Below, in pieces: positions 1,635-60,594 of a stretch of DNA of 64,000 nucleotides. The translations under genes were made by a program, and so were the position numbers. The stretch covers positions 26,981-90,980 of the forward strand of contig JBAZMT010000001.1 in assembly GCA_041649615.1 (NCBI GenBank), written 5' to 3'. The stretch's first letter is position 1, and each line of letters opens with the position of its first letter. Source of the stretch: Parcubacteria group bacterium. GTDB lineage: Bacteria; Patescibacteriota; Minisyncoccia; UBA6257; Colwellbacteraceae. The notes under the pieces were generated by a model, which saw only the letters and a list, made by a program, of their open reading frames with translations, had not been told where the DNA came from and did not search any database.

Positions 1635-3902
1635 TTAAAGTTTTTTCGCTTTAAGTCTTAGTGAGTTGCCGACAACCGAAACGCTGCTTCCGGCCATGGC
1701 AAGCCCCGCAAAAATAGGGTTCAAAACTATTCCCCAGAGCGGAAAAAGCAATCCGGCGGCGATGGGGATGCCTACCACGTTATAAATAAAGGCCCAGAAT
1801 AGATTTTGTTTTATCGTTCTTATGGTCGCGCGGGAAAGTTTCATCGCTTCGGCGAGTTTGACTATGTCTCCGTGAAGAAGAGTTATACCCGCCGATTCTA
1901 TGGCAACGTCCGTACCGGTCGCCATGGCGATTCCCACGTCCGATTGCATAAGCGCCGGCGCATCGTTAATTCCGTCTCCCACCATGGCCACTTTTCTGCC
2001 TTCACTCTGCAATTCTTTTATTTTTCCGGCCTTATCTCCCGGGAGGACGTCGGCTATCACTTCGCCGATTCCGGCAAGGTCTGCGATATAACGCGCGGCG
2101 GAATCGTTGTCTCCGGTGAGCATCACAATTCTAATTCCTTGCTTCTTGATTCGGGAAATGGTTTCTTTCGCTTCGGGTCTTAAAATATCGCTCAAGGCGA
2201 TCATGCCGACTTTTATGTCGTTCAATTCAACGATGACCGCGGTTTTGCCTTGCTTTTGCAAGCGGATCAAACGCTCATCAATATCTTTTTCCGTTGGTTT
2301 GTGGATATAGACGTTTTTTTTGCCGATCTTCGCTTTTATACCTATTCCTTCAAGCGCGTGAAAATCAGATTCCGCAACCAAAGAAAGGTTCTGTTTTGAA
2401 GCTTCGGCGACTATCGCTTCGGCCAAAGGATGTTCCGACATTTTTTCCGCGCTGCCGGCAAACTTTAAAATCTCATTCTTATTCAATGATTCATCCAAAA
2501 TTATCACGTCGGTTACTTCCGGCTTTCCTTTAGTGATGGTGCCGGTTTTGTCAAAGACTATCGTGTTCACTTTGCTTAAAATTTCCAGGGCTTCGGCGTT
2601 TTTAATTAAAATTCCGTATTCCGCGCCTTTGCCGACTCCGACGATAATAGCCGTTGGCGTTGCAAGACCCAAGGCGCAAGGACAGGCAATGACCAATACT
2701 CCCACAAAAGAGAAAATCGCATACGATAAGGCCGTTTCAAAACCGATCGCAGAAATGCCGAATACGAGCCAGAGAATAAAAGAACATACGGCAATGATAA
2801 GAACGGTGGGAACGAAAATACCGGAGATTCGGTCTGCTAAAGCCTGGATCGGCGCTTTGGAACCTTCCGCTTCTTCAACCATTTTTATAATCTGAGCAAG
2901 CATGGTGTCCGTGCCGACTTTCGTAGCTTTGAATCTAAAACTTCCTTGCTTGTTTATGGTCGCGCCGATGACCAAATCACCGGCCGTTTTATCGGTCGGG
3001 ATCGGTTCTCCCGTTATCATGGATTCATCAACGGAAGTGTTTCCTTCGGTTATCACTCCGTCGGTCGGAATTTTCTCTCCGGGTTTTACGATAATTATGT
3101 CTCCCACGACGACTTCGCTCACTGGAATTTGGATTTCCACTCCTTTGCGCACGACCAAAGCGGTTTTTGCCTGAAGACCGAGCAGTTTTTCAATGGCTTC
3201 GCCGGTTTTAAATTTGGAACGCGCTTCAAGATATTTACCGAGGCTCACGAATCCGATAACGACAATGATTACGTCAAAGTAAGTCGTTTCGGGAAGACCA
3301 AGAAGCATTCTTATTTGGGGGAAAAGAGTAATAATCGCGCTGTATAAGTACGCGGTAAAAGCGCCGATACCGATAAGAGTATCCATATTGGCTGCCCGAT
3401 ACCTTATAAATCTCACTACGCCCAAGAGAAACGGTTTGCCGATCCAGAATATGGTGACCGAAGAAAGACCCAAGAGAATTACGTTTATGACATCCATTGA
3501 GAGCGGAATAGAAGGCAAAAGGCTTAAAAATTGCGTGGCGATATCCCACATCATAAAAAGGAAAACGGCGGCTGCGACGGGGAAAATAAACCTGACTTTG
3601 GTTTTTTGTTTGGCTAATTCCTGTTCTTTTTGACTTTTGGTCATTCCGGCACCCGTATGTTTGCTGTGATCCTCGGAGCTCATATTCATTTCGGCAGGGG
3701 AGAGAACGTATCCGAGCTTTTCCATCTCGTTATTTATTTTTTCAACCGAAGTTTTCTCTGGATCATATTCAATGTGCGCTTTTTCGGCCGCGAAGCTGAC
3801 ATCAGCTTTTTCAATTCCTTCCATTTTTTTCAGCCGGGAAGAAATGATATTGGCGCAACTCGCGCAATGCATACCGCCTATCGTGAAATTTTGTTTTGCC
3901 AT
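1635..3902 (-). CDS. copA: copper-translocating P1B-type ATPase
   Basis: N-terminal HMA motif GMHCASC; membrane CPC motif (ACPCALG); DKTGTIT phosphorylation site; [10 protein letters not shown] hinge. 755 aa. Confidence 0.9.
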
Positions 3903-6904: not shown

Positions 6905-7138
6905 TTATTTGGCTAAAAATTCAAACAATTGGTAAACCAAAAATGCCGGCCAGGCGAGAGCTTTAAGAAATCCCAGAACGCCGAACCAAAAACTCGTAGC
7001 TTCACCGATGAAATAAACGGCCGCTCCGATAAGACCTATGCCGTAAACGGCTCCGCCGCAACCGCACTTCGGTTTATTGCACTTTTCCCCTTCGGTCTTT
7101 TTACCGAATTTTTTAAAACAATCGGAAAGTTTGTACAT
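6905..7138 (-). CDS. small Cys-rich membrane protein (2 TM)
   Basis: 77-aa ORF with CNKPKCGCGG followed by two hydrophobic helices. The overlapping + strand ORF is less protein-like. Confidence 0.4.
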   Translation of the reverse strand: MYKLSDCFKKFGKKTEGEKCNKPKCGCGGAVYGIGLIGAAVYFIGEATSFWFGVLGFLKALAWPAFLVYQLFEFLAK

Positions 7139-32653: not shown

Positions 32654-34066
32654 CTAACGGGATAGAAGAAGGGGAGTAATATCCGAGATGTTTCCGGCGC
32701 CCATTAGGACGAGGATATCGCCCTTTTTTAAGGAGAGCTTAGCTATGCTTGGTTTAATATTTTTAACATTCTTAATATAAGTTGCTTTTGAAACCTGGAT
32801 TCCCGCCTTCGTGGGAATGACGGAAGATGGGAGATTATTAATATCGCGCGCGAGGGATTTGGAGTTTTTGGTTTTGGATAATTCATCTCTTCCTTTGGGA
32901 TTATAGGCATCAAGAAGAAGAACGTAATCGGCGTCGTTCCAAGAGGAAACGAAATCTTTATACAAAGCGGTGAGCCTTCGTTGTTGATGAGGCTCAAAAC
33001 AGACGGCGATACTCTGGCTTGGAAATTTTTCGCGGAGCGCTTGCAAGGTCGCTTTTATTTCCGTTGGATGATGAGCGTAATCGTCATAAACTTTAACGCC
33101 GTTTTTCGTAACGCCTTTATACTCAATTCGACGCCAAACCCCTTTGAATTCCGATAAGGCGCTTAAAATTGTTTTCTCGTTTATTCCTAACTTCTCTCCA
33201 AGTTTATATGCGGCAAGAGCGTTCATTATATTGTGTGTTCCCGGAATTTTGATAACGCGTTTTATTTTTTGAATTTCGGATTTGTTTTTTTCTGAAAAAT
33301 TAATTATGTTCCCCCATCCTTTTAAGCGGGGGATTAGAGATGCCGAATTTTTGTTGTCGCCGTTCAGGATTATATCTCCTTTTTTCGGAACGGATTTGAG
33401 AAACTTCAAAAACGAATTCTTGACGGCCTTCAAATCTTCATAAAAATCAACGTGCTCCAGATCAATGTTCGTGACAATCGCGGCGTACGGCCTGTAATGC
33501 CAAAAGGCGCCTTTATATTCGTCGGCTTCAATCACGAGCCAGTCACTTTTACCGTGTCGCATATTCCAACCGTTCAATTTGGTTCCAATAATGACCGTAG
33601 GGTCCATTTTAGCCTTAATAAGGATCGTTGAGACCATTGCGGTCGTAGTGCTCTTGCCGTGACTGCCGGCGATGGCGATTGTCTTATACTTCTTTGTTAA
33701 TTCTCCCAGAGCTTCGGGATAGGTCTCTCGCTTAATATCCAAATTATCCGCCTTCTGTAATTCGGAGTTATCTAAGGGTATAGCGGCTGAATAGATAACT
33801 AAATCAGCCTTTTCGGGCAAATTTACCGATTTGTGCCCAATTTTGACCTTTATCCCGTCTTTCTTTAATTCCCTGGTAATTTGACTTTCTACGGCATCAG
33901 AACCTGTTACGAGCCAATTTTCGGCCAAAAACCAACGAGCTAAGGAGCTCATTCCAATGCCGCCTATACCGATGAAATGAACCACTTTTCTGTTGGCCTG
34001 ATAGGGGAGACTGACGCCTGAGCGAACTTTAGGTTTTACAAATTTAGACATATTCGGATACAACAT
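32654..34066 (-). CDS. murC: UDP-N-acetylmuramate--L-alanine ligase
   Basis: VHFIGIGGIGMSSLARWF Rossmann N-terminus, Mur ligase P-loop GSHGKSTTTAM, C-terminal KKGDILVLMGAGNI. True start may be the Met at 34051. Contains an in-frame copy of the palindromic repeat (residues SVIPTKAGIQ). Confidence 0.85.
   Translation of the reverse strand: MLYPNMSKFVKPKVRSGVSLPYQANRKVVHFIGIGGIGMSSLARWFLAENWLVTGSDAVESQITRELKKDGIKVKIGHKSVNLPEKADLVIYSAAIPLDNSELQKADNLDIKRETYPEALGELTKKYKTIAIAGSHGKSTTTAMVSTILIKAKMDPTVIIGTKLNGWNMRHGKSDWLVIEADEYKGAFWHYRPYAAIVTNIDLEHVDFYEDLKAVKNSFLKFLKSVPKKGDIILNGDNKNSASLIPRLKGWGNIINFSEKNKSEIQKIKRVIKIPGTHNIMNALAAYKLGEKLGINEKTILSALSEFKGVWRRIEYKGVTKNGVKVYDDYAHHPTEIKATLQALREKFPSQSIAVCFEPHQQRRLTALYKDFVSSWNDADYVLLLDAYNPKGRDELSKTKNSKSLARDINNLPSSVIPTKAGIQVSKATYIKNVKNIKPSIAKLSLKKGDILVLMGAGNISDITPLLLSR
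32797..32823. repeat. palindromic repeat element copy A (GGATTCCCGCcttcGTGGGAATGACGG), inside murC coding sequence
   Basis: 8-bp inverted repeat ATTCCCGC/GTGGGAAT with 4-nt loop. Shares flanks aacCTGG...GAATGACrGAA with the other copies. Translated in-frame as SVIPTKAGIQ within murC. Confidence 0.8.
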
Positions 34067-34068
34067 AC

Positions 34069-34096
34069 CGGATTCCCGGCGTACCGGGAATGACAG
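34069..34096. repeat. palindromic repeat element copy B (CGGATTCCCGGcgtaCCGGGAATGACAGAA)
   Basis: Perfect 8-bp stem ATTCCCGG/CCGGGAAT, loop CGTA. Lies 3 bp upstream of the annotated murC start. Confidence 0.8.
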
Positions 34097-34526
34097 AAAA
34101 AAAGAGAGGTAGAAGGAATTAAATATAGATATATACTAGCGGGATCAAAAATTAAAATTCAAAGAAGGGAAGGGATATCAAATAATATGTGTGTCGCAAA
34201 AGGTGCATTATGCGACATATGATTAAGATGCGCAAGCCTACTCCCCCTACATCTCCTCCTACATATTACCCATAACCTCCCTTGCCAATTTAGCGAGAGC
34301 ATCAAAAAGCAAACTTAAGACATTCAATAAAGCCTTCGCGGCCGGCAAAATGTATTGCCATGAATTCTTTAAAGCCTCAAGCACTTTTTGAAATTCCGGA
34401 GCTGAGTCCATGACTCTTATTATAGCTCAAACATGAAGAGACGTTAAAAGCGTTAAACGCCGAAATGTGAAAACGGTGAAGACGGATATGAAAACATCAC
34501 GCTTGGCTCCAGACTGTGCGGACGGG

Positions 34527-52830: not shown

Positions 52831-52861
52831 AAAAAATGCCTCAATAATGAGGCATTTTTTG
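52831..52861 (-). terminator. rho-independent terminator downstream of rnpB (bidirectional hairpin)
   Basis: aatgcctcaataatgaggcatt hairpin flanked by A6 and T6, immediately 3' of the RNase P RNA 3' end on the minus strand. Confidence 0.65.
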
Positions 52862-53375
52862 TGCGGCCGGGTAAGCCGGATTCTGTAATCACCTCTCCAG
52901 TTTTACGTCTGTAAAACTGGAGAGGGATGATGGCAATTTATCTAGGTCTAAGATTACTCTTAGACTCAAGCGACTCCCTATGACCCGCTTTTGCTCTTGC
53001 GAGCTATAGCGAGGCATAGTACGGTCTTGCATTCCACAAGGATTTAGCCGTTTCACTTCCGTTTTTTGTCCCTATCACGGAATTAAGCCTTCTACGTTGG
53101 GATGGGGCTCTCCTCAGCTTTTCAGCTCGATATTTCTATCGGCTCGCTTTTGCGCTTGCGCGCTATAGCGTAGCGAAGACGTCACTGCTCGCACCTCTCT
53201 TATCAAATAAATTGGTAAGGACGGCTTTTAACCGCTGTGTTTTTCCCCTCTCCAGTTTTCGTAAAAACTGAGGAGGGAGAAAGTCCAGACTTTCCTCATC
53301 TCATTTCTTAATACTGATTCCCGCTTTCGTGGAAATAACAGAGAGAAACAAAACGCTGCCATCCGGGCCGCAATT
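52862..53375 (-). ncRNA. rnpB: RNase P RNA, bacterial type A (M1 RNA-like), unusually long
   Basis: Minus-strand sequence contains GAGGAAAGUCUGGACUUUC (P4 5' strand, cf. GAGGAAAGUCCGGGCUCC; + strand 53285-53297) and ACAGAAUCCGGCUUA (P4 3' strand; + strand 52872-52886). It also has CCUAGAUAAAUUGCC (cf. CCUAGAUGAAUGAC), GCUUGAG + P17-like hairpin, AAGGCUUAAU...AGGG (cf. AAGGCCAAAUAGGGG) and CCCAUCCCAACGUAGAAGGCU (cf. CCACCCGGAGCAAGGCC). A putative P1 pairs GCGGCC (53363-53372 region) with GGCCGC at the 3' end. Ends are approximate. Confidence 0.65.
53316..53346. repeat. degenerate repeat-like hairpin (GATTCCCGCtttcGTGGAAATAACAGAG), alternatively the P3 helix of rnpB
   Basis: Resembles the repeat consensus with 2 stem mismatches. 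On the minus strand it forms an AUUUCCAC-GAAA-GCGGGAAU hairpin (GNRA loop) at the position expected for RNase P P3. Confidence 0.4.
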
Positions 53376-53412
53376 GTTTATAACATAAAAATGCAACAAC
53401 GTCAATCAACCT

Positions 53413-53439
53413 GAATTCCCGCCTGCGCGGGAATGACAG
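53413..53439. repeat. palindromic repeat element copy C (GAATTCCCGCctgcGCGGGAATGACAG)
   Basis: Stem ATTCCCGC/GCGGGAAT, loop CTGC, flank aacCTGA...GACAGAAAAA. Intergenic between the rnpB 5' end and the ppiB start. Confidence 0.8.
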
Positions 53440-53476
53440 AAAAAGGAAAGAATAAATGTGGTAAAATGGGAAAAAT

Positions 53477-54151
53477 ATGAAAAATAAACTGATAATAGCG
53501 GGACTGGTCGCTTTAGTGGCAACGGCGTCAACGCTTATCTTTTTTGCCGCTAAGACCGAATCAAGTAAAAAGACCGCCGAACCGGAAGAGATAGTAATCA
53601 GCGAAACCGTTCCTTCCGAGGGAATAACGAATGAAGAAACAAATACAAACCAATCAACAAACAAAGTGGAAAATTTTAAACATATCGTAACGCTTGAGAC
53701 ATCTTTGGGAACCATAAAAATAGAAACTTATGACGCTGACGCGCCGAAAACCGTAGAAAACTTTTTGAAGCTCGCGAGCGATGGATTTTATAACGGTGTG
53801 ATGTTTCATCGCGTCATAGACGGATTCATGATCCAAGGCGGAGATCCGACCGGAACGGGCTTTGGAGGTCCCGGATACACGTTCGCGGACGAACTTAATC
53901 CGAAAACGGAGTCATACAAAAACGATTATAAGAAGGGCGTAGTCGCCATGGCGAATTCGGGACCGAATACCAACGGCAGTCAGTTCTTCATAGTGGTTGC
54001 CGATTATCCTTTGCCGCATAATTACACGATTTTTGGAAGGGTCATTGAGGGACAAGATGTGGCGGATAAGATTGCGAAAGTAAAAAGAGATTCAGCCGAT
54101 AAACCGTTAGAAGACGTAGTGATCAGAAAAGCAACCGTAACGGAAAAATGA
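53477..54151 (+). CDS. ppiB: peptidyl-prolyl cis-trans isomerase (cyclophilin type), membrane-anchored
   Basis: FHRVIDGFMIQGGDP...MANSGPNTNGSQFFIV cyclophilin signature. N-terminal TM. Confidence 0.9.
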   Translation: MKNKLIIAGLVALVATASTLIFFAAKTESSKKTAEPEEIVISETVPSEGITNEETNTNQSTNKVENFKHIVTLETSLGTIKIETYDADAPKTVENFLKLASDGFYNGVMFHRVIDGFMIQGGDPTGTGFGGPGYTFADELNPKTESYKNDYKKGVVAMANSGPNTNGSQFFIVVADYPLPHNYTIFGRVIEGQDVADKIAKVKRDSADKPLEDVVIRKATVTEK

Positions 54152-54268
54152 GCAAAAGAAAAACCCGCATCAATAAGATACGGGTTTTAAGGAAAGGAGT
54201 GGGGCAAAAATGTTTTAAGCTTCAATCTTCGTTATAGCATAGATAAACCGATTTGTCAATAGCAGGCT

Positions 54269-55096
54269 TTATTTCCAGGGGAGCTTTAAAGGATTTGAGG
54301 CATCAATCACAAAGCTAGCGGCCGCTTTATGCCCTCCTCCGCCGTATTTAAGGGCGATTCGCGATACGTCCACTTTGCCGTTTGAACGCAAAGAAACTTT
54401 GAGCTTATCCCCTTTTTTACACCAAACGATACCGATGCCTTTGGCTTTAGTTGCGAGAACGTGCCCGATCTCTGAAACAAATACAGGAGAATTCACGGCA
54501 AGACATTTTCGGCCGGCAAATTTGACCCATTCGGCCGTAGAAGAAAGAGTTTCTATGTTCTGTTTGGAAAAGCTAAGAATGGAAGAGCCTTTATTAAAGA
54601 ATTCTTTTCTTTTGTCCGGATTTTCAAAATCTTTTATTAGTTTGTCCCAAGTCTTGAGGTCAAAAGGTAAAGTATCCAAATAAGCCAGATATTCTCTCGT
54701 ACCTTTGAGAGCAAACTTCCAGGTGTCGTTATCCTGAATGTGAAGCAATAGTTTTGGAGCGCTCTTTTTGGGGAAGAAATATTTCCAGGCAAGAATGGCG
54801 CCGGAATTAGTTTCTCCAAAAACGTATTCCGTTGAGACCTTAACCGCCTCGCGCTGGCTCACGTGATGATCCAAAACGACAACTTTTGCGGCTGATTTTA
54901 AAACCGATTTCATTTTATCCTCGGAATAACAATAATCAACCATATACACTTCTCTGCCTTTTAAATCTTTAGGGGGCGAAGAAGGATGCGCGGCGGCGAG
55001 ATATTCGGCTTTGGCGCCGAATTTTTTGCGGGCTGCCCAAGCGGCGCCGAAACCATCGGGGCAATTTTTGTGGTAAATGACGAGGATCTTTTTCAT
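54269..55096 (-). CDS. DHH-family phosphoesterase (NrnA-like)
   Basis: DHH motif I (IYHKNCPDGFGAA), motif III VLDHH. 275 aa. Confidence 0.65.
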   Translation of the reverse strand: MKKILVIYHKNCPDGFGAAWAARKKFGAKAEYLAAAHPSSPPKDLKGREVYMVDYCYSEDKMKSVLKSAAKVVVLDHHVSQREAVKVSTEYVFGETNSGAILAWKYFFPKKSAPKLLLHIQDNDTWKFALKGTREYLAYLDTLPFDLKTWDKLIKDFENPDKRKEFFNKGSSILSFSKQNIETLSSTAEWVKFAGRKCLAVNSPVFVSEIGHVLATKAKGIGIVWCKKGDKLKVSLRSNGKVDVSRIALKYGGGGHKAAASFVIDASNPLKLPWK

Positions 55097-56151
55097 CTAT
55101 ATTTGATTCCCAGGGCTTCAAGAGCGGGAAGTTTTTTGCCTGCGAGAAATTCTAGCATCGCTCCGCCTCCGGTTGAAAGAAAAGAAAATTTCCTTTCCAG
55201 ACCGAAGGAAATAATGGCCGAGGTGGTTTCCCCACCTCCCACAACCGAAAAACAATCCGTCTTTGCTATCGCCTCCGCCACCGTTTCCGTTCCATGACTG
55301 AAAGCTTTGCGTTCAAACATGCCGAGCGGCCCCGCCCAAACAACGGTTTTGGAAGAGCGTACAATTTCCGCAAATTTTTTGGCCGTGTTCGGCCCGATGT
55401 CTAAGATATTCTTCTTAGAAGTTCGGAAATCAAAAGGATACAAGACTTTGGGATTTTTAATCAGTTTCTTCGCTTCCGGAATAAGCGATTTTTCAAAAAG
55501 AGAATTCATCACATCATAACCGGCAGCCTTGAGAGCGGTATTCCCCACTCCCCCTCCCAAGAGAACGTAATCCGCTTTAGCGAGAAGATTTTTGATGACG
55601 GGCAGCTTGCTTTTCATTTTTCCGCCGCCGACAATCAAGGTAAAAGGATGCGCCGGATGAGCCATTATTTTTTTAAGGGCCACTAGTTCGGTTTTCATTA
55701 TCGGGCCTTCAAGGCTCGTTAAAAATTCGGTGATGCCCACGTTTGAGGCTTGCGTCCGGTGAGCGGTCGCGAAATCGTCATTTATAAAAACGTCGCCGAA
55801 AGAGGCAAACGTTCTCGCGAGTGCGGAACTGTTTTTCATCTCTCCGGAAAAGAATCTAGTGTTTTCCAGAGCGAAAATACCTTTTTTTACAAGCACGCGC
55901 TCCAGGTGCTTTTCGGGAGAGCCTTCCAGGAAAGATATTCTCCGGCGGGATTTTTCGGAGAGCTCCTTAATAATCGGTTTTAGACTCAAGGAACCATCAA
56001 CTCCGTTCGGTCTTCCCCGGTGACTCAAGATGACGATTCGTCCGAATTTGGGAGACAGATTTTTTACGGACTCCACCGCTCTTTTCATTCGCAGAGAAGA
56101 AGAAACATCGTGAGCGTCAATATCAAGATTTAAACGGACAACCGCGTTCAT
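55093..56151 (-). CDS. pgk: phosphoglycerate kinase
   Basis: ILSHRGRP, FINDDFATAHR, GGGKMKSK, GGGETTSAI motifs. N-terminus somewhat short; an alternative upstream start is possible. Confidence 0.85.
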   Translation of the reverse strand: MNAVVRLNLDIDAHDVSSSLRMKRAVESVKNLSPKFGRIVILSHRGRPNGVDGSLSLKPIIKELSEKSRRRISFLEGSPEKHLERVLVKKGIFALENTRFFSGEMKNSSALARTFASFGDVFINDDFATAHRTQASNVGITEFLTSLEGPIMKTELVALKKIMAHPAHPFTLIVGGGKMKSKLPVIKNLLAKADYVLLGGGVGNTALKAAGYDVMNSLFEKSLIPEAKKLIKNPKVLYPFDFRTSKKNILDIGPNTAKKFAEIVRSSKTVVWAGPLGMFERKAFSHGTETVAEAIAKTDCFSVVGGGETTSAIISFGLERKFSFLSTGGGAMLEFLAGKKLPALEALGIKYR

Positions 56152-56219
56152 ATTTCCTTACTATAGTAAAGAAATCTCAAAACTCAAAACTCATCAGCCT
56201 CTAATCTTTTAAACTAAAA

Positions 56220-56243
56220 CCCCCTCCGCCAATGGCGGAGGGG
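56220..56243 (-). terminator. rho-independent terminator for the upstream minus-strand surface-protein gene
   Basis: cccctccgccaatggcggagggg hairpin; on the minus strand it is followed by a T-rich run. Confidence 0.5.
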
Positions 56244-56353
56244 GAAAGGTCTCGGGGCAAAGTAATCCTCGGAGTTGAACTTGCGTTCGTCCCTCGGAGA
56301 TAACTTCACTCGCAGGCGTATTGTAGCAGATTATCTCTTAAAAGTCAATGCTT

Positions 56354-58012
56354 TTAATTTTCCGGAGTGGCAGAAACAGAATTCTTTTGTCCTTTTTCTT
56401 CCTTCCGTTCTTTTTTTCTCATAACAACAAGGTAAACGATGGTGATGAGCATAAGAATAAAGAGAAGCAAGAAGAGCCAGCTGCCGGTGATTGATTCGGC
56501 GAAGCTAGAAAGAGAGGCGAGGAAATTAAATCGGCTACCACCGACAGTTACGGCAATGTAGGAATTAACCGTCTGTGCTCTTTTGGCCGCATCGGTGAAA
56601 TCAAGAGAAGAATTAAAGACGAGGTTCTGACCCTTGTCGGCGTCATCGTGTATTTTCACTTTGACGATAATGATTCCCTGACTGCCCTTTTCAACGTCTC
56701 CGATCGTGAAGGTCAAGTTATTGGCCATCCACGAGGTCGGTTTAACGTTCGCGTCCACGTATTCCGTTCCGTATGGAAGAAGGACTTTTATAACGGAACT
56801 GGTGATTTTTCCGTTTGAAGCGTTCCTATAGGTGAGAACGTAATCAATCGTGTCGCCCGCTTTGGGATCAAGATCGCTTACCGAAGGATCAAGCAAGACG
56901 CCTGAATCGTTCGTTACGACAATCGGCGGATTAACGATTATGCTGCCGCTAGCAGTTTTAAAGTATCTTATTTCACCGTAATTCGTGCCGTAGGAATTTT
57001 CCGCAACCGCGCGATAGTAATAAGTAACATTCGCGGCCAAATTGGAAACGTTAATGTAGTAGTCGTTTTGTGAAGCATAAGAAGGAACGGACACGCTTGA
57101 GGATCTGATGTAGAGATCGCTTGAAGTGGGACCGTACTCAAACCACATGGTCGCGGCAGAGCCGTTAGCGCTTACTCTTCCCTGAAGAGTAGCGGAATTT
57201 TGAAGAACGTTAGAGTGCCAAACGGTCGTTACTTGAGGAGCGTTGTAGTAAGTGGGAGGAACATAACCTCCGGAAGTATTGAAGCTCCGAGTGGAACTGT
57301 AGTCCGTGCCGTACGAATTGCGGGCAATCAACCGGTAATAGTAAGTAGTGTCTTCGTTCAAACTGTAAACCGAAGCGGAAACATTGGTGTTTCCATAATA
57401 GCTTCCGAGAGACCGAGTGCTCGTTCTCTGCGACAAATTGCCGCTTCGAGTACCGTATTCAAACCAGTATTCGGTTGAGGAACCGTTCGGGCTAACATAG
57501 CCTTCCAAAGAAGCCGAATTACGAGTGATGCTATAGGCGGAAGAAATTGAAACTTCAGGAGCACTGCCAACGGGACCCGGGGGGTTGTAACCGCCGGAAG
57601 TGGTAAAGGTTTTATCTTGACCATACTGAATTTCTCCTTGGCTGTTTTTGGCCACTACGTGAAACCTATAAGTAGTTCCCGTTTCAAGTCCGGAGATCGT
57701 TTTTGAAACAGCCGTATATCCGCTTCCGGATCCGATGGAAGAAGAGCTTGTTAACACATCAAACATGCTGGAACCGGAGGTAGTGTATTCAAACCAATAT
57801 TCGGTTGAAACGCCGTTAGGATTGACCTTTCCATTTAAGGTAACAGAACTTTGGGAAACATTTGTCGCATCGCTTGAAATAGCCGAAGGAGCGGAAGCCA
57901 AGGCTATGGCCGGGATAAGCGACGGTAAAACAGCGGTTATAGCCGCAATGGGTAATATTTTTCTAAACATAGTCATAAGGCGGAGCTTATCATAATTACT
58001 TAATTCTGTCAA
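56354..58012 (-). CDS. secreted surface protein with three tandem beta-sandwich (FN3/PKD-like) repeats, DUF11-like domain and C-terminal TM anchor
   Basis: Signal peptide; three repeats each ending ...TYYYR(A/L)(I/V)A(R/E)NSYGT(D/N)Y...F(N/K)T(S/A)GG; C-terminal hydrophobic anchor + basic tail. Confidence 0.6.
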   Translation of the reverse strand: MTELSNYDKLRLMTMFRKILPIAAITAVLPSLIPAIALASAPSAISSDATNVSQSSVTLNGKVNPNGVSTEYWFEYTTSGSSMFDVLTSSSSIGSGSGYTAVSKTISGLETGTTYRFHVVAKNSQGEIQYGQDKTFTTSGGYNPPGPVGSAPEVSISSAYSITRNSASLEGYVSPNGSSTEYWFEYGTRSGNLSQRTSTRSLGSYYGNTNVSASVYSLNEDTTYYYRLIARNSYGTDYSSTRSFNTSGGYVPPTYYNAPQVTTVWHSNVLQNSATLQGRVSANGSAATMWFEYGPTSSDLYIRSSSVSVPSYASQNDYYINVSNLAANVTYYYRAVAENSYGTNYGEIRYFKTASGSIIVNPPIVVTNDSGVLLDPSVSDLDPKAGDTIDYVLTYRNASNGKITSSVIKVLLPYGTEYVDANVKPTSWMANNLTFTIGDVEKGSQGIIIVKVKIHDDADKGQNLVFNSSLDFTDAAKRAQTVNSYIAVTVGGSRFNFLASLSSFAESITGSWLFLLLFILMLITIVYLVVMRKKERKEEKGQKNSVSATPEN

Positions 58013-58111
58013 GCCTCTCTTCGGGAGAGCTTCACCGCCGCATTATAGGGATTTTTGAATAAAAAAAGAACCCTCATCCGCTAAGATTTGGGTTCGTTCT
58101 GATAAGGAGGA

Positions 58112-58744
58112 TTAATTGCTCGGGGTCCATGTTTTGGTGGTCCCCGTGATGACCGTTCCGTCCAGCAATTTTATCATGGGCTGGATGGTGGTTTTTGAGC
58201 AAGGTTTTTCTATCCTTTGCTCAATCCTATGATTTCCTTGATAGACGCGCCAGGGTTCGCTTCTGCCGTTCAATTTGAACGACCACTGCGCAACTTCCGA
58301 CGTATCTCCCGTCAGGGCAAAAGTCATGATGAGGAAGGTTTCTCCGTCCACCGTTTCCTCTCGAATTGGCGGATCAAGATAGATACTAAGCTCCTCGGAA
58401 GGCACTTTTGTCTTTTGGGGTGTCTTTGTAGGCGCAGGTGTAGGTGTCTTGGTCTTGACTGGTCCCTTTGTTTTAACGGGTTTTTGCGTCTTCTTAGGCG
58501 CTTCCGTTTTGGCAGGGCACCCAGTTTTAACGCATATGCACGTCTCAACGGGTGAGTAAGCGTTCTCTACCTCGACATCTCTGTGCTCCGCAGGCCTTTG
58601 AAAAAATACTCCCCAAACGATCAGGCCGATTATGGCTAAACCGAGTACTACAATAGCCACGAATATTGCGATAATCCAGCCTTTTTGGTCGTCTCTTGGA
58701 GTTTCCTCATCTGGATCTGGGGGAACAATGGGCGGTCTCGGCAT
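58112..58744 (-). CDS. hypothetical membrane-anchored protein with Pro/Thr/Lys-rich linker
   Basis: TM IIAIFVAIVVLGLAIIGLIVWGV; PKKTQKPVKTKGPVKTKTPTPAPTKTPQKTKVP low-complexity linker. Confidence 0.5.
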   Translation of the reverse strand: MPRPPIVPPDPDEETPRDDQKGWIIAIFVAIVVLGLAIIGLIVWGVFFQRPAEHRDVEVENAYSPVETCICVKTGCPAKTEAPKKTQKPVKTKGPVKTKTPTPAPTKTPQKTKVPSEELSIYLDPPIREETVDGETFLIMTFALTGDTSEVAQWSFKLNGRSEPWRVYQGNHRIEQRIEKPCSKTTIQPMIKLLDGTVITGTTKTWTPSN

Positions 58745-58871
58745 TTCAGGTACCTCCTTTTCTAAAATTTTTATTGTCCAGCTTTCATTTTATCATAAAA
58801 GAACGATTTTGTCAATCTTCCTCCGCTGAAGCTAAGAAAGGATACAGCATAGGGATGATAACAAAAAACCT

Positions 58872-58898
58872 GGATTCCCGGTACGCCGGGAATGACAG
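58872..58898. repeat. palindromic repeat element copy D (GGATTCCCGGtacgCCGGGAATGACAG)
   Basis: Perfect stem ATTCCCGG/CCGGGAAT, loop TACG, flank aaaCCTGG...GACAGAAGG. Intergenic, 3' of the gtrA-like gene. Confidence 0.8.
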
Positions 58899-58929
58899 AA
58901 GGAGCGCATGTCCGCCCATAATAATGTAA

Positions 58930-59355
58930 TTACTTTTTGAAGACGATAAATTTATAGCCTAAGAAGTTCCAAATAAGAGAAATACCCGTGGCGAGGACGG
59001 CTCCGACATTTACCCATAACGCTTGAGAAAGACCGAACATCGGTTTGATGAAAGTTGAAATCAGATAAACTATCCCCGAATTTATCGCCCATCCGATAAT
59101 GCTTACAATCAAAAATTGACCGACTTGAAAAACGCGAACGGATTCTTTGTCTTTGAACGTCCAAAATTTATTCCACAAATAACTATTCGTGGTCGCGATT
59201 ATAAAGGCGGTGCTCGTTAACGGAATGATTGAGATTCCTTTCGTTATGCCCGTTATAAAAATGAGGAAGTTCAATACGCCAAAGTAGATCGCCGTATTAA
59301 GAACTCCGATCACGGCAAATTTTCCGAATTGAAGAAAAAGCTTTTTGATGTCCAT
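58930..59355 (-). CDS. GtrA-family membrane protein
   Basis: Start set at the internal Met (MDIKKLFLQFGKFAVIGVLNTAIYFGVLNFL), the typical GtrA N-terminus. The automated ORF extends further only by reading through a palindromic repeat located in the tpiA 3' end. Confidence 0.7.
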   Translation of the reverse strand: MDIKKLFLQFGKFAVIGVLNTAIYFGVLNFLIFITGITKGISIIPLTSTAFIIATTNSYLWNKFWTFKDKESVRVFQVGQFLIVSIIGWAINSGIVYLISTFIKPMFGLSQALWVNVGAVLATGISLIWNFLGYKFIVFKK

Positions 59356-59359
59356 TACT

Positions 59360-60118
59360 TTATTGTACTGGATTCCCGCTTCCGCGGGAATGACGGAGGG
59401 ATGCAATTACTATCGGGACTTCTTTTAATTTTAAACTAGCGCCGCCAACAAGAACACCGGAAACGTCCGGGGCTTCGGCGTATATTTCCGCGTTCGCCGG
59501 ATTAACCGATCCGCCGTAAAGCACTTTAGCTTTTTTACCGAAGATTTTTTGGAATCTTTCCGCCATCGCTTCCATAACCGGCGCCATTTCTTTCAAAGTC
59601 GCATTCCTTCCTCCGCTCGTGGTGCTTATGGCCCAAACGGGTTCGTAGGTGAGAATGATTTTATCCGCCTTTTCTTTCGGAACCCCCGAGAGAGAATCGT
59701 TTAATTGCGCAATAACCGTTTTAATGGCGGATGGAACGCTTGTTCTTTTTCTTTCGCCAACGCAAACAATGGGGATAACGCCCGCGTTTATCGCGGCTAA
59801 AGTTTTTTTGGAAACCGATTCGGAGGTTTCGCCAAAGTTTTTTCTTCGCTCTGAATGACCCAAAATGGCGTATTTAACGCCAAGACTTTCAAGCTGCGCA
59901 AAAGAATACTCCCCCGTGTATGCGCCCTCCGTATAAAATCCGTCTTGCGAGCCCAAGGACGCGTGTTTTAATTTGCCCGCGACAAGAGACAAAAAAGGCG
60001 CCGGCGGACAGACGATGACGTTTGGGGAATCCGAGGCGGAAGCAAGCAATTTCGCTTCGGCAGAAGAAGCGGGATTGCATTTCCAGTTCATAACTACGAG
60101 TTTATCGGAGGTTTTCAT
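59360..60118 (-). CDS. tpiA: triose-phosphate isomerase
   Basis: NWKCN, ILGHSERR, YEPVWAI(S/G)TG motifs. C-terminal 10 residues (SLRHSRGSGNPVQ) are encoded by a copy of the palindromic repeat. Confidence 0.9.
   Translation of the reverse strand: MKTSDKLVVMNWKCNPASSAEAKLLASASDSPNVIVCPPAPFLSLVAGKLKHASLGSQDGFYTEGAYTGEYSFAQLESLGVKYAILGHSERRKNFGETSESVSKKTLAAINAGVIPIVCVGERKRTSVPSAIKTVIAQLNDSLSGVPKEKADKIILTYEPVWAISTTSGGRNATLKEMAPVMEAMAERFQKIFGKKAKVLYGGSVNPANAEIYAEAPDVSGVLVGGASLKLKEVPIVIASLRHSRGSGNPVQ
59370..59396. repeat. palindromic repeat element copy E (GGATTCCCGCttccGCGGGAATGACGG), inside tpiA 3' end
   Basis: Stem ATTCCCGC/GCGGGAAT, loop TTCC. Encodes the last residues of TpiA (RHSRGSGNPVQ*). 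The automated ORF for gtrA read through it as SVIPAEAGIQ. Confidence 0.8.
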
Positions 60119-60126
60119 GGGAGTAA

Positions 60127-60594
60127 TTATATGACAGAAAGCAGATTAGAGCCCGTTTGCACGAAAAAAGAAACGATGATGCCCGAAATTATGGCGCCAA
60201 GAATTATCATTATAGCCGCTTTTTTAAGCGGAACGCCGAAAACAAGCGCCATTAACGTTCCCGTCCAAACGCCGGTCAAAGGAAAAGGCAGGGCCACAAA
60301 AATAAAAAGAGCGAGACTTTCCCACTTTTTAAATCCCCAGGAATGTCTTTTGCGCGTCATATCGGTGAGCCAGGCGAAGAGCCGGTTAAAATAGTAAAAG
60401 TGATCGGCGAGCTTTTCGGCTATAAAATTCCAAAATAAAAGAAGAGGAATAACCGGCAAAAGATTTCCCAAAGTGGAAAGCAGAAACGCCTTAAGAACCG
60501 AAAAATGCCAAATAAAAACGGCGAAGGGCATTGCTCCTTCCAATTCAAAAAAAGGAGAAGCGCCAATAAGAACGGTCAACAATTCTCCTTTCAT
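60127..60594 (-). CDS. small membrane protein (COG2426-like putative small multidrug export protein)
   Basis: 155 aa, 4 TM. Family call tentative. Confidence 0.45.
   Translation of the reverse strand: MKGELLTVLIGASPFFELEGAMPFAVFIWHFSVLKAFLLSTLGNLLPVIPLLLFWNFIAEKLADHFYYFNRLFAWLTDMTRKRHSWGFKKWESLALFIFVALPFPLTGVWTGTLMALVFGVPLKKAAIMIILGAIISGIIVSFFVQTGSNLLSVI

Follow-up and report, generated by a model that had tools for sequence, protein, structure and literature searches.

The tpiA gene of the 64-kb window (the whole stretch of 64,000 nucleotides that was analysed; all positions refer to it) runs through a copy of a short palindromic repeat just before its stop codon, and the ORF called for the downstream gtrA-like gene passes through the same copy in another frame. 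The question raised by this locus is where the C-terminus of the encoded triose-phosphate isomerase (TPI) comes from, which of the two genes is read through the repeat, and what kind of repeat this is.

Residues 7-234 of the tpiA product match the Pfam family TIM (E 1.4e-59), the product shares 100% identity with an NCBI entry annotated as TPI of Parcubacteria, and the catalytic residues K13, H88, and E159 are invariant in the alignment with relatives. MurC and the cyclophilin of the window likewise share 100% identity with NCBI proteins of a Parcubacteria group bacterium. The genes of this neighbourhood are all encoded on the minus strand: PBP2, a GalT-like gene, a small exporter gene, tpiA, the gtrA-like gene, and a hypothetical gene. 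With recomputed coordinates, the TPI ends in ...GGASLKLKEVPIVIASLRHSRGSGNPVQ*. An earlier note on this DNA had attributed the last approx. 10 codons to a repeat, named copy E there. The attribution was borne out. The copy is, however, the sixth by position (F) once a degenerate copy in rnpB is counted, and the number of codons was slightly under-counted, as the whole unit comprises 13 codons (A239 in part, S240-V251, and part of Q252). The hairpin core together with the tag and the tail of copy F encodes R242-V251.

The window was searched with a strict pattern, GGATTCCCG-N6-CGGGAATGAC, allowing up to 3 mismatches. This gave 5 matches in 64 kb versus 0.03 expected, and repeat finding (family D1) added a sixth, degenerate copy. 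The six copies are 33-39 nt long each (Table 1). Read on the minus strand, the unit consists of a pyrimidine-rich lead, C/T-GTC, ATTCCCG(C/G), 4 loop bases, (G/C)CGGGAAT, and CCAG(GTT). The tag is CGTC in copies F and A, TGTC in B, D, and E, and TGTT in the degenerate copy C. Copies B, D, E, and F possess an 8-bp stem, ATTCCCGC/GCGGGAAT or ATTCCCGG/CCGGGAAT; in copy A the stem contains a single A.C mismatch (on the tag strand), and in copy C two mismatches. The 4-nt loops are GGAA, GAAG, TACG, GAAA, GCAG, and CGTA, and the 3' tails are CCA (A, E, and F), CCG (B), TCA (D), and CAG (C). For five of the six copies, the hairpin is part of the predicted fold.

The three sense frames are free of stop codons in all six copies, and one antisense frame contains a TGA in each; counting both strands, most copies can be read in five of the six frames. 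The peptides encoded by the window copies are VIPxxAGIQ, SFPRKRES, HSRxSGNP, and DSRFRGND. All six copies are single and oriented alike, the minus strand being the tag strand; the chance of such uniformity is about 1 in 32. Five of them are located within or beside minus-strand genes and would be transcribed tag-first, and copy D is located between divergent genes. A connection of this orientation with the direction of replication was considered and rejected, the GC skew across the window being too weak.

Some variation was observed among the copies. Copies B and E carry a compensatory stem variant, CCCGG/CCGGG instead of CCCGC/GCGGG, and the loop of B (TACG) is the reverse complement of that of E (CGTA). 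None of the 165 instances sampled in other genomes has this stem variant, which may represent a lineage-specific subfamily. Copies A (in the murC mRNA) and C (in rnpB) share the stem ...CCCAC/GCGGG..., with an A.C mismatch on the transcribed strand and a G.T wobble on the other; in the murC copy the mRNA is predicted to fold without the hairpin. This could be due to selection against structure or to descent from one source copy.

Table 1. Coordinates of the genes, the repeat copies, and the elements of copy F in the 64-kb window
Feature	Positions	Strand	Basis
murC, holds copy A	32654-34066	-	
Copy A, in frame within murC (...PSSVIPTKAGIQV...)	32792-32830	-	11-codon insert vs empty-site L127
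Copy B, abuts the murC ATG (34066) on its upstream side	34065-34103	-	family D1
Copy C (degenerate), terminal loop of helix P3, RNase P RNA	53310-53348	-	lacking in the RNase P RNAs of L128 and L129
Copy D, intergenic, between rnpB and the cyclophilin gene	53408-53446	-	family D1
Hypothetical gene	58112-58744	-	tpiA neighbourhood
Promoter-like site TTGACA-17-TAAAAT (11/12, with TG), for the next gene	58787-58815	-	sigma-70-like consensus match only
Copy E, 25 nt past the gtrA stop, terminator-like hairpin followed by T-run	58867-58905	-	family D1; fold; terminator scan
gtrA-like gene, true CDS, 141 aa	58930-59355	-	Pfam GtrA_DPMS_TM; ATGs align in L001, L002, L003
Spacer between tpiA stop and gtrA start, 4 nt	59356-59359	-	direct reading; 5-10 nt in relatives
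Spurious 5' extension of the gtrA ORF, TTG start, MHPSVIPAEAGIQYNKV	59356-59406	-	without counterpart in relatives
tpiA, 252 aa including the repeat-encoded tail	59360-60118	-	Pfam TIM match
tpiA stop TAA, outside the repeat, possibly the native stop	59360-59362	-	direct reading; in-silico 33-nt removal
Copy F, whole CGTC-1 REP unit, tpiA frame gives (A)SLRHSRGSGNPV(Q)	59365-59403	-	family D1; alignment with other copies
Copy F, CCAG tail	59368-59371	-	alignment; consensus of other-genome instances
Copy F, hairpin ATTCCCGC-GGAA-GCGGGAAT, 8-bp stem, 4-nt loop	59372-59391	-	MFE and centroid folds, both strands
Copy F, unpaired CGTC tag	59392-59395	-	direct reading
Copy F, pyrimidine-rich 5' lead (CATCCCTC)	59396-59403	-	CT-rich run before the tag in 7/7 aligned copies
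Small exporter gene	60127-60594	-	tpiA neighbourhood

Judged from its sequence features, the window repeat is a CGTC-1 REP, a member of a described family (Di Nocera, De Gregorio & Rocco, 2013, BMC Genomics 14:522; PMC3733652) that had gone unrecognised in the earlier note. CGTC-1 units are defined by an unpaired CGTC tag (TGTC or CCTC are allowed), an 8-bp stem with complementary A-T in the first and second positions, a 4-nt loop, and a short unpaired 3' tail, mostly CCA (PMC3733652). The window copies display the CGTC or TGTC tag, with the exception of degenerate copy C (TGTT), as well as the 8-bp stem with A-T, the 4-nt loop, and the 3' tail. They are interspersed and numerous (six in 64 kb). 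The peptides encoded by them are the published ones, i.e. VIPAKAGI, SFPRKRES, CHSRESGNP, and DSRFRGND, which are given for intragenic CGTC-1 units in supplement file 4 of the same study (PMC3733652). The family also includes dRS3 of Neisseria and RPE-6 of Rickettsia conorii; its units are interspersed, mostly near gene 3' ends, and the CGTC REPs have no dedicated transposase (PMC3733652). Intragenic CGTC units have been reported, slightly more than 10% of them at ORF ends, and some of the peptides are C-terminal, as for example residues 232-240 of the 242 residues of RC0483 (PMC3733652). The hosts of CGTC REPs listed in that study belong to 5 phyla, none of them from the Candidate Phyla Radiation (CPR) (PMC3733652).

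Head-to-head dimers predominate in CGTC families, but many single ('S') units have also been tabulated (PMC3733652). The dimer arrangement, which is typical but not defining, was not seen among the six window copies, all of which are single and in the same orientation. Since many single units are listed in the published set, this does not exclude membership in CGTC-1.

A census of the 25-nt core, performed with one genome per species, revealed it in at least 120 loci from many phyla. The hosts include Neisseria, Sphingomonas, Azospirillum, Dehalococcoidia, Parcubacteria, Uhrbacteria, and Saccharibacteria. Among the matches listed (165 instances in 120 loci of other genomes), the base preceding GTC was C in 112 and T in 50 instances, the loop was mostly GAAA, GAAG, or GCAG, and the tail was CCA in 146 of the 165, followed by G in 99. 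Rfam covariance models gave no match at E<=1 in positions 58820-59450, and at gathering thresholds the whole window yielded two tRNAs only. No Y1/HUH or IS110 transposase was found in a Pfam survey (30 ORFs of the 64-kb window, 203-kb contig), in which the ORFs were housekeeping genes or had no match; this outcome is in agreement with the literature.

An alternative to be considered is that two contigs were falsely joined via a shared unit and that tpiA does not truly read into it. The short-read assembly of the same organism does break exactly at copies D and F. Namely, contig L130 from the independent Logan assembly of SRR8542065 starts inside copy D and ends inside copy F, so repeat units do break short-read assemblies. 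Over its length, however, this contig is 100% identical to window positions 53415-59397. The identity extends to inside copy F, which makes the presence of the repeat directly upstream of gtrA reproducible. On the tpiA side, the sequence is unbroken from the aligned helix codons into the repeat lead, and the tpiA-gtrA adjacency is conserved in all relatives that continue past tpiA (L001-L004); this conserved synteny argues against a false join on that side. We assign only a very slight chance to an assembly artefact.

The gtrA start predicted in the earlier note, position 59355, agrees well with the situation in the relatives. The ATG at 59355-59353 opens a product beginning with MDIKK, and in the three loci in which the gene is complete (L001, L002, and L003) GtrA comprises 141 aa, and its aligned ATG opens the corresponding M(D/N)IKK. 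The reading of the gtrA ORF through the repeat in another frame, also pointed out previously, originates from TTG 59406, which opens a 158-aa ORF (MHPSVIPAEAGIQYNKV-MDIKK...) overlapping the tpiA tail; the false N-terminus of this long form is MHPSVIPAEAGIQ. One could suppose that the long form is the real gtrA, with a start at TTG 59406, a 47-nt overlap with tpiA, and a repeat translated in two frames. The frame is indeed open, and in contig L130 the gene caller likewise ran gtrA through the repeat, up to the contig end. Against this stand the 141-aa proteins of the three relatives, the Pfam GtrA domain, which begins only at residue 29 of the 158-aa ORF, and the composition of the 17 extra residues, which are exactly the frame-1 peptide of the repeat (HPSVIPAEAGIQY), a frame open in every copy. 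Such a start is very improbable. By comparison with the relatives, gtrA starts at 59355, and the 158-aa ORF is an artefact of the ORF finder that arises from the lack of stop codons in the three sense frames of the repeat. The distance of 4 bp between the tpiA stop and this start, as given earlier, is correct. No Shine-Dalgarno-like sequence was detected before gtrA, either here or in the relatives.

Four syntenic loci from three relatives (L001-L004) were available for comparison of the tpiA-gtrA junction. The gene order PBP2-GalT-(exporter)-tpiA-gtrA is kept in all of them, with the gene downstream of tpiA cut by the contig end in L004; in L001-L003, tpiA is followed by the 141-aa gtrA after 5-10 nt. 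The palindrome was found in none of the four loci. The closest TPIs share 56-68% identity with the window protein, possess 233-245 aa versus 252 here, and end four residues past the helix aligned with LKEVPIVIASL of the window. The comparison of TPI C-termini proposed in the earlier note revealed the end RHSRGSGNPVQ in 0 of 24 aligned relatives and in 0 of 120 retrieved TPI matches. If this tail were native TPI sequence, its likeness to the repeat would have to be coincidental or convergent. An intact reading frame, and nothing beyond it, agrees with a native tail. By contrast, no TPI of the available relatives (none of which is >90% identical) ends in this way, the underlying DNA contains every part of a CGTC-1 unit (tag, stem, loop, and tail), and six copies occur in the window versus 0.03 expected. 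The probability of a native tail is close to nil.

The statement that the native tail after GGASLK had been replaced by repeat-encoded residues turned out to be too strong. TPI residues 229-241 (LKLKEVPIVIASL) still align with the last helix of the relatives, I(N/D)xKKAAAVIKL. Deletion of 33 nt (59369-59401) in silico restores a 241-aa TPI, which ends with ...PIVIAVQ* at the same TAA. Accordingly, a simple in-frame insertion accounts for the data, and no replacement has to be assumed. No more than the final ~4 residues of the relatives' TPIs (MQSK, IKAK, IRNI) are missing here. The relatives are ~67-74% identical in protein (nearest TPI ~67%), a distance at which insertion boundaries and a target-site duplication are not readable; because of this divergence, loss of up to 4 native C-terminal TPI codons alongside the insertion is possible.

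The AlphaFold (AF2) model of the TPI has a mean pLDDT of 87.8. Its last helix is placed at residues 234-242, and only residues 245-252 are below pLDDT 50. According to this model, the last helix of the TPI is intact, and the tail gained behind it, ~10 residues (HSRGSGNPVQ), is predicted to be unstructured. The core and the catalytic residues appear untouched, and the tail is therefore most likely a tolerated, neutral passenger.

The explanation that we consider highly probable is that a CGTC-1 REP unit lies in frame at the 3' end of tpiA and adds a tail to its product. A single unit is located at the extreme 3' end of the gene. With a length of ~33-39 nt and no stop codon in any sense frame, it lets tpiA run through and end at the TAA just beyond; the same open frames lead ORF finders to prolong gtrA on its 5' side across the repeat, in a second frame. 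To produce the tail, a unit inserted in frame directly before the native stop would suffice, and the 11-codon in-frame insert in murC, as compared with the empty site in L127, counts in favour of such an event at tpiA. Presumably the unit was inserted at this position and did not originate there. With the annotated ORF, translation of tpiA would proceed through the repeat in frame.

An in-frame unit of this kind is compatible with a further reading, in which the hairpin at the tpiA/gtrA junction is kept for function rather than being neutral. It could stabilise the 3' end of the tpiA mRNA or couple the translation of gtrA to ribosomes finishing tpiA. The copy F hairpin is predicted to be stable in the mRNA sense (about -18 kcal/mol in an 81-nt context, z -2.1), 16 nt separate the end of its 3' arm (59372) from the gtrA ATG, and gtrA has no Shine-Dalgarno-like sequence of its own. 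A role for such hairpins would also be in line with the terminator-like copy E downstream of gtrA and with the literature, in which many REPs have been argued to act as RNA elements. However, the same gene pair exists in relatives without the repeat, copy F has no U-tract, and units are also located in unrelated contexts (the murC coding sequence and the rnpB loop), which argues for opportunistic insertion. On balance, we regard a retained function as unlikely.

Copy F was also considered as an intrinsic terminator and rejected, given the absence of a U-tract (tail CCAGUACAAUAAAG) and of any flag in the terminator scan. The same scan flagged copy E (58874-58893), with ATTCCCGGCGTACCGGGAAT followed by the tail CCAGGTTTTT. 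A near-consensus promoter-like site was observed just downstream of copy E, upstream of the hypothetical gene, and suggests an operon boundary at this copy.

Other copies of the window are located in genes as well. Copy A forms an 11-codon insert, SVIPTKAGIQV, in a loop of the C-terminal domain encoded by murC, as compared with the empty-site L127. In L126 (69% identity), a CGTC-1 unit is present at the same murC site and in the same frame (3075-3113), together with partial tandem duplications; other relatives possess unrelated short inserts or none at this position. The murC site looks like an insertion hot spot or a variable loop. A class-A RNase P RNA of 519 nt was identified at 52856-53374 on the minus strand (72.6 bits, E 6e-22; below the Rfam gathering threshold of 100). 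Copy C, ~35 nt, fills the terminal loop of its helix P3. The RNase P RNAs of two relatives are 404 nt (L128, 2022-2425) and 423 nt (L129, 2024-2446) long and have short P3 loops without the repeat.

Several further units were observed in related or other genomes. The TPI relative P0021 (L131, 1501-2460; 62% identity) contains an in-frame insertion of ~80 residues between residues 141 and 224. This insertion includes one intact CGTC-1 unit (~2133-2162), a stem-variant ATTTCCCGC...ATCGGGAAT (~2020-2050), and decayed fragments; another variant unit is located past the stop codon (~2537-2566). In another Parcubacteria MAG (L044), a CGTC-1 unit is located at 6950-6975 in the ORF of queuine tRNA-ribosyltransferase (TGT), whose Pfam match is split in two. 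One more unit occurs at 1510-1535 of L089, a contig assigned by binning to Nanoarchaeota, within the ORF of a DNA methylase.

The sites in essential genes of this CPR clade thus comprise the tpiA 3' end, a cluster in the tpiA interior, the murC site in two lineages, TGT, and the P3 loop of RNase P RNA. One may speculate that CGTC-1 REPs are actively spreading in the tiny CPR genomes and have entered several essential genes independently in this clade, a scenario that we consider rather improbable. If true, presence/absence profiling across the CPR, whose genomes are gene-poor, could expose the mobiliser of CGTC REPs, i.e. the moving machinery, which is perhaps a host function and not a dedicated transposase.

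The tpiA tail is a new instance of the already described decoration of protein termini by CGTC-1 REPs, and it leaves the existing knowledge of how such elements behave unchanged. It extends a pan-bacterial, unusually conserved REP family to the CPR. We found no earlier literature description of a CGTC-1 REP in a host of the Parcubacteria group, and nothing relevant on REPs in Patescibacteria or on palindromic elements in RNase P or tmRNA; the repeat-encoded peptide strings had no match in the full-text literature. Essential enzymes of this clade tolerate the units at their termini and in surface loops, and the same holds even for the loop of a ribozyme; in Rickettsia, RPEs are accommodated in much the same way. 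There are also consequences for annotation. The deposited 252-aa TPI carries a repeat-encoded tail and gene callers over-extend gtrA; with their open frames, the units will continue to mislead gene prediction in CPR metagenome bins, where erroneous N-terminal extensions and small spurious ORFs result. Two by-products of the analysis stand out as most interesting: the P3-loop copy of RNase P RNA and the recurrence of units in essential genes of this CPR clade.

Among the known systems, GTAG REPs and REPINs, which are mobilised by RAYT in E. coli and Pseudomonas, resemble the window repeat as short tagged hairpins often located at gene 3' ends, where they can supply or abut stop codons. This identity was ruled out for the window copies, which have the tag CGTC/TGTC, form no doublets, and are not accompanied by a RAYT among the 30 scanned ORFs.

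Neisseria dRS3, whose core is ATTCCC-N8-GGGAAT, is closer, and loci of Neisseria lactamica and N. dentiae (L071, L107) are among the matches of our search pattern. The dRS3 elements flank RS units in large intergenic mosaic arrays and serve as integration targets for filamentous prophages and IS110-type elements; in contrast, no mosaic arrays and no prophage or IS110 integration were seen in the window. RPE-6 and other RPEs of Rickettsia are likewise small palindromic repeats placed in frame in housekeeping genes that are left intact. Rickettsia and the CPR are alike in their reduced genomes and host-dependent lifestyle, but the host organisms are unrelated. RPE-1 and several other RPEs are longer, about 100-150 bp.

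The CGTC-1 REPs as a family provide the best match. The window copies differ from those described so far in their CPR/Parcubacteria host, in being single units in one orientation instead of head-to-head dimers, in the stem variant CCCGG/CCGGG with loops TACG/CGTA of copies B and E, and in the location of one copy inside an RNase P RNA gene. They share with the family the tag, stem, loop, and tail, an interspersed distribution mostly close to the 3' ends of genes, the in-frame and C-terminal placement of copies, and the same encoded peptides.
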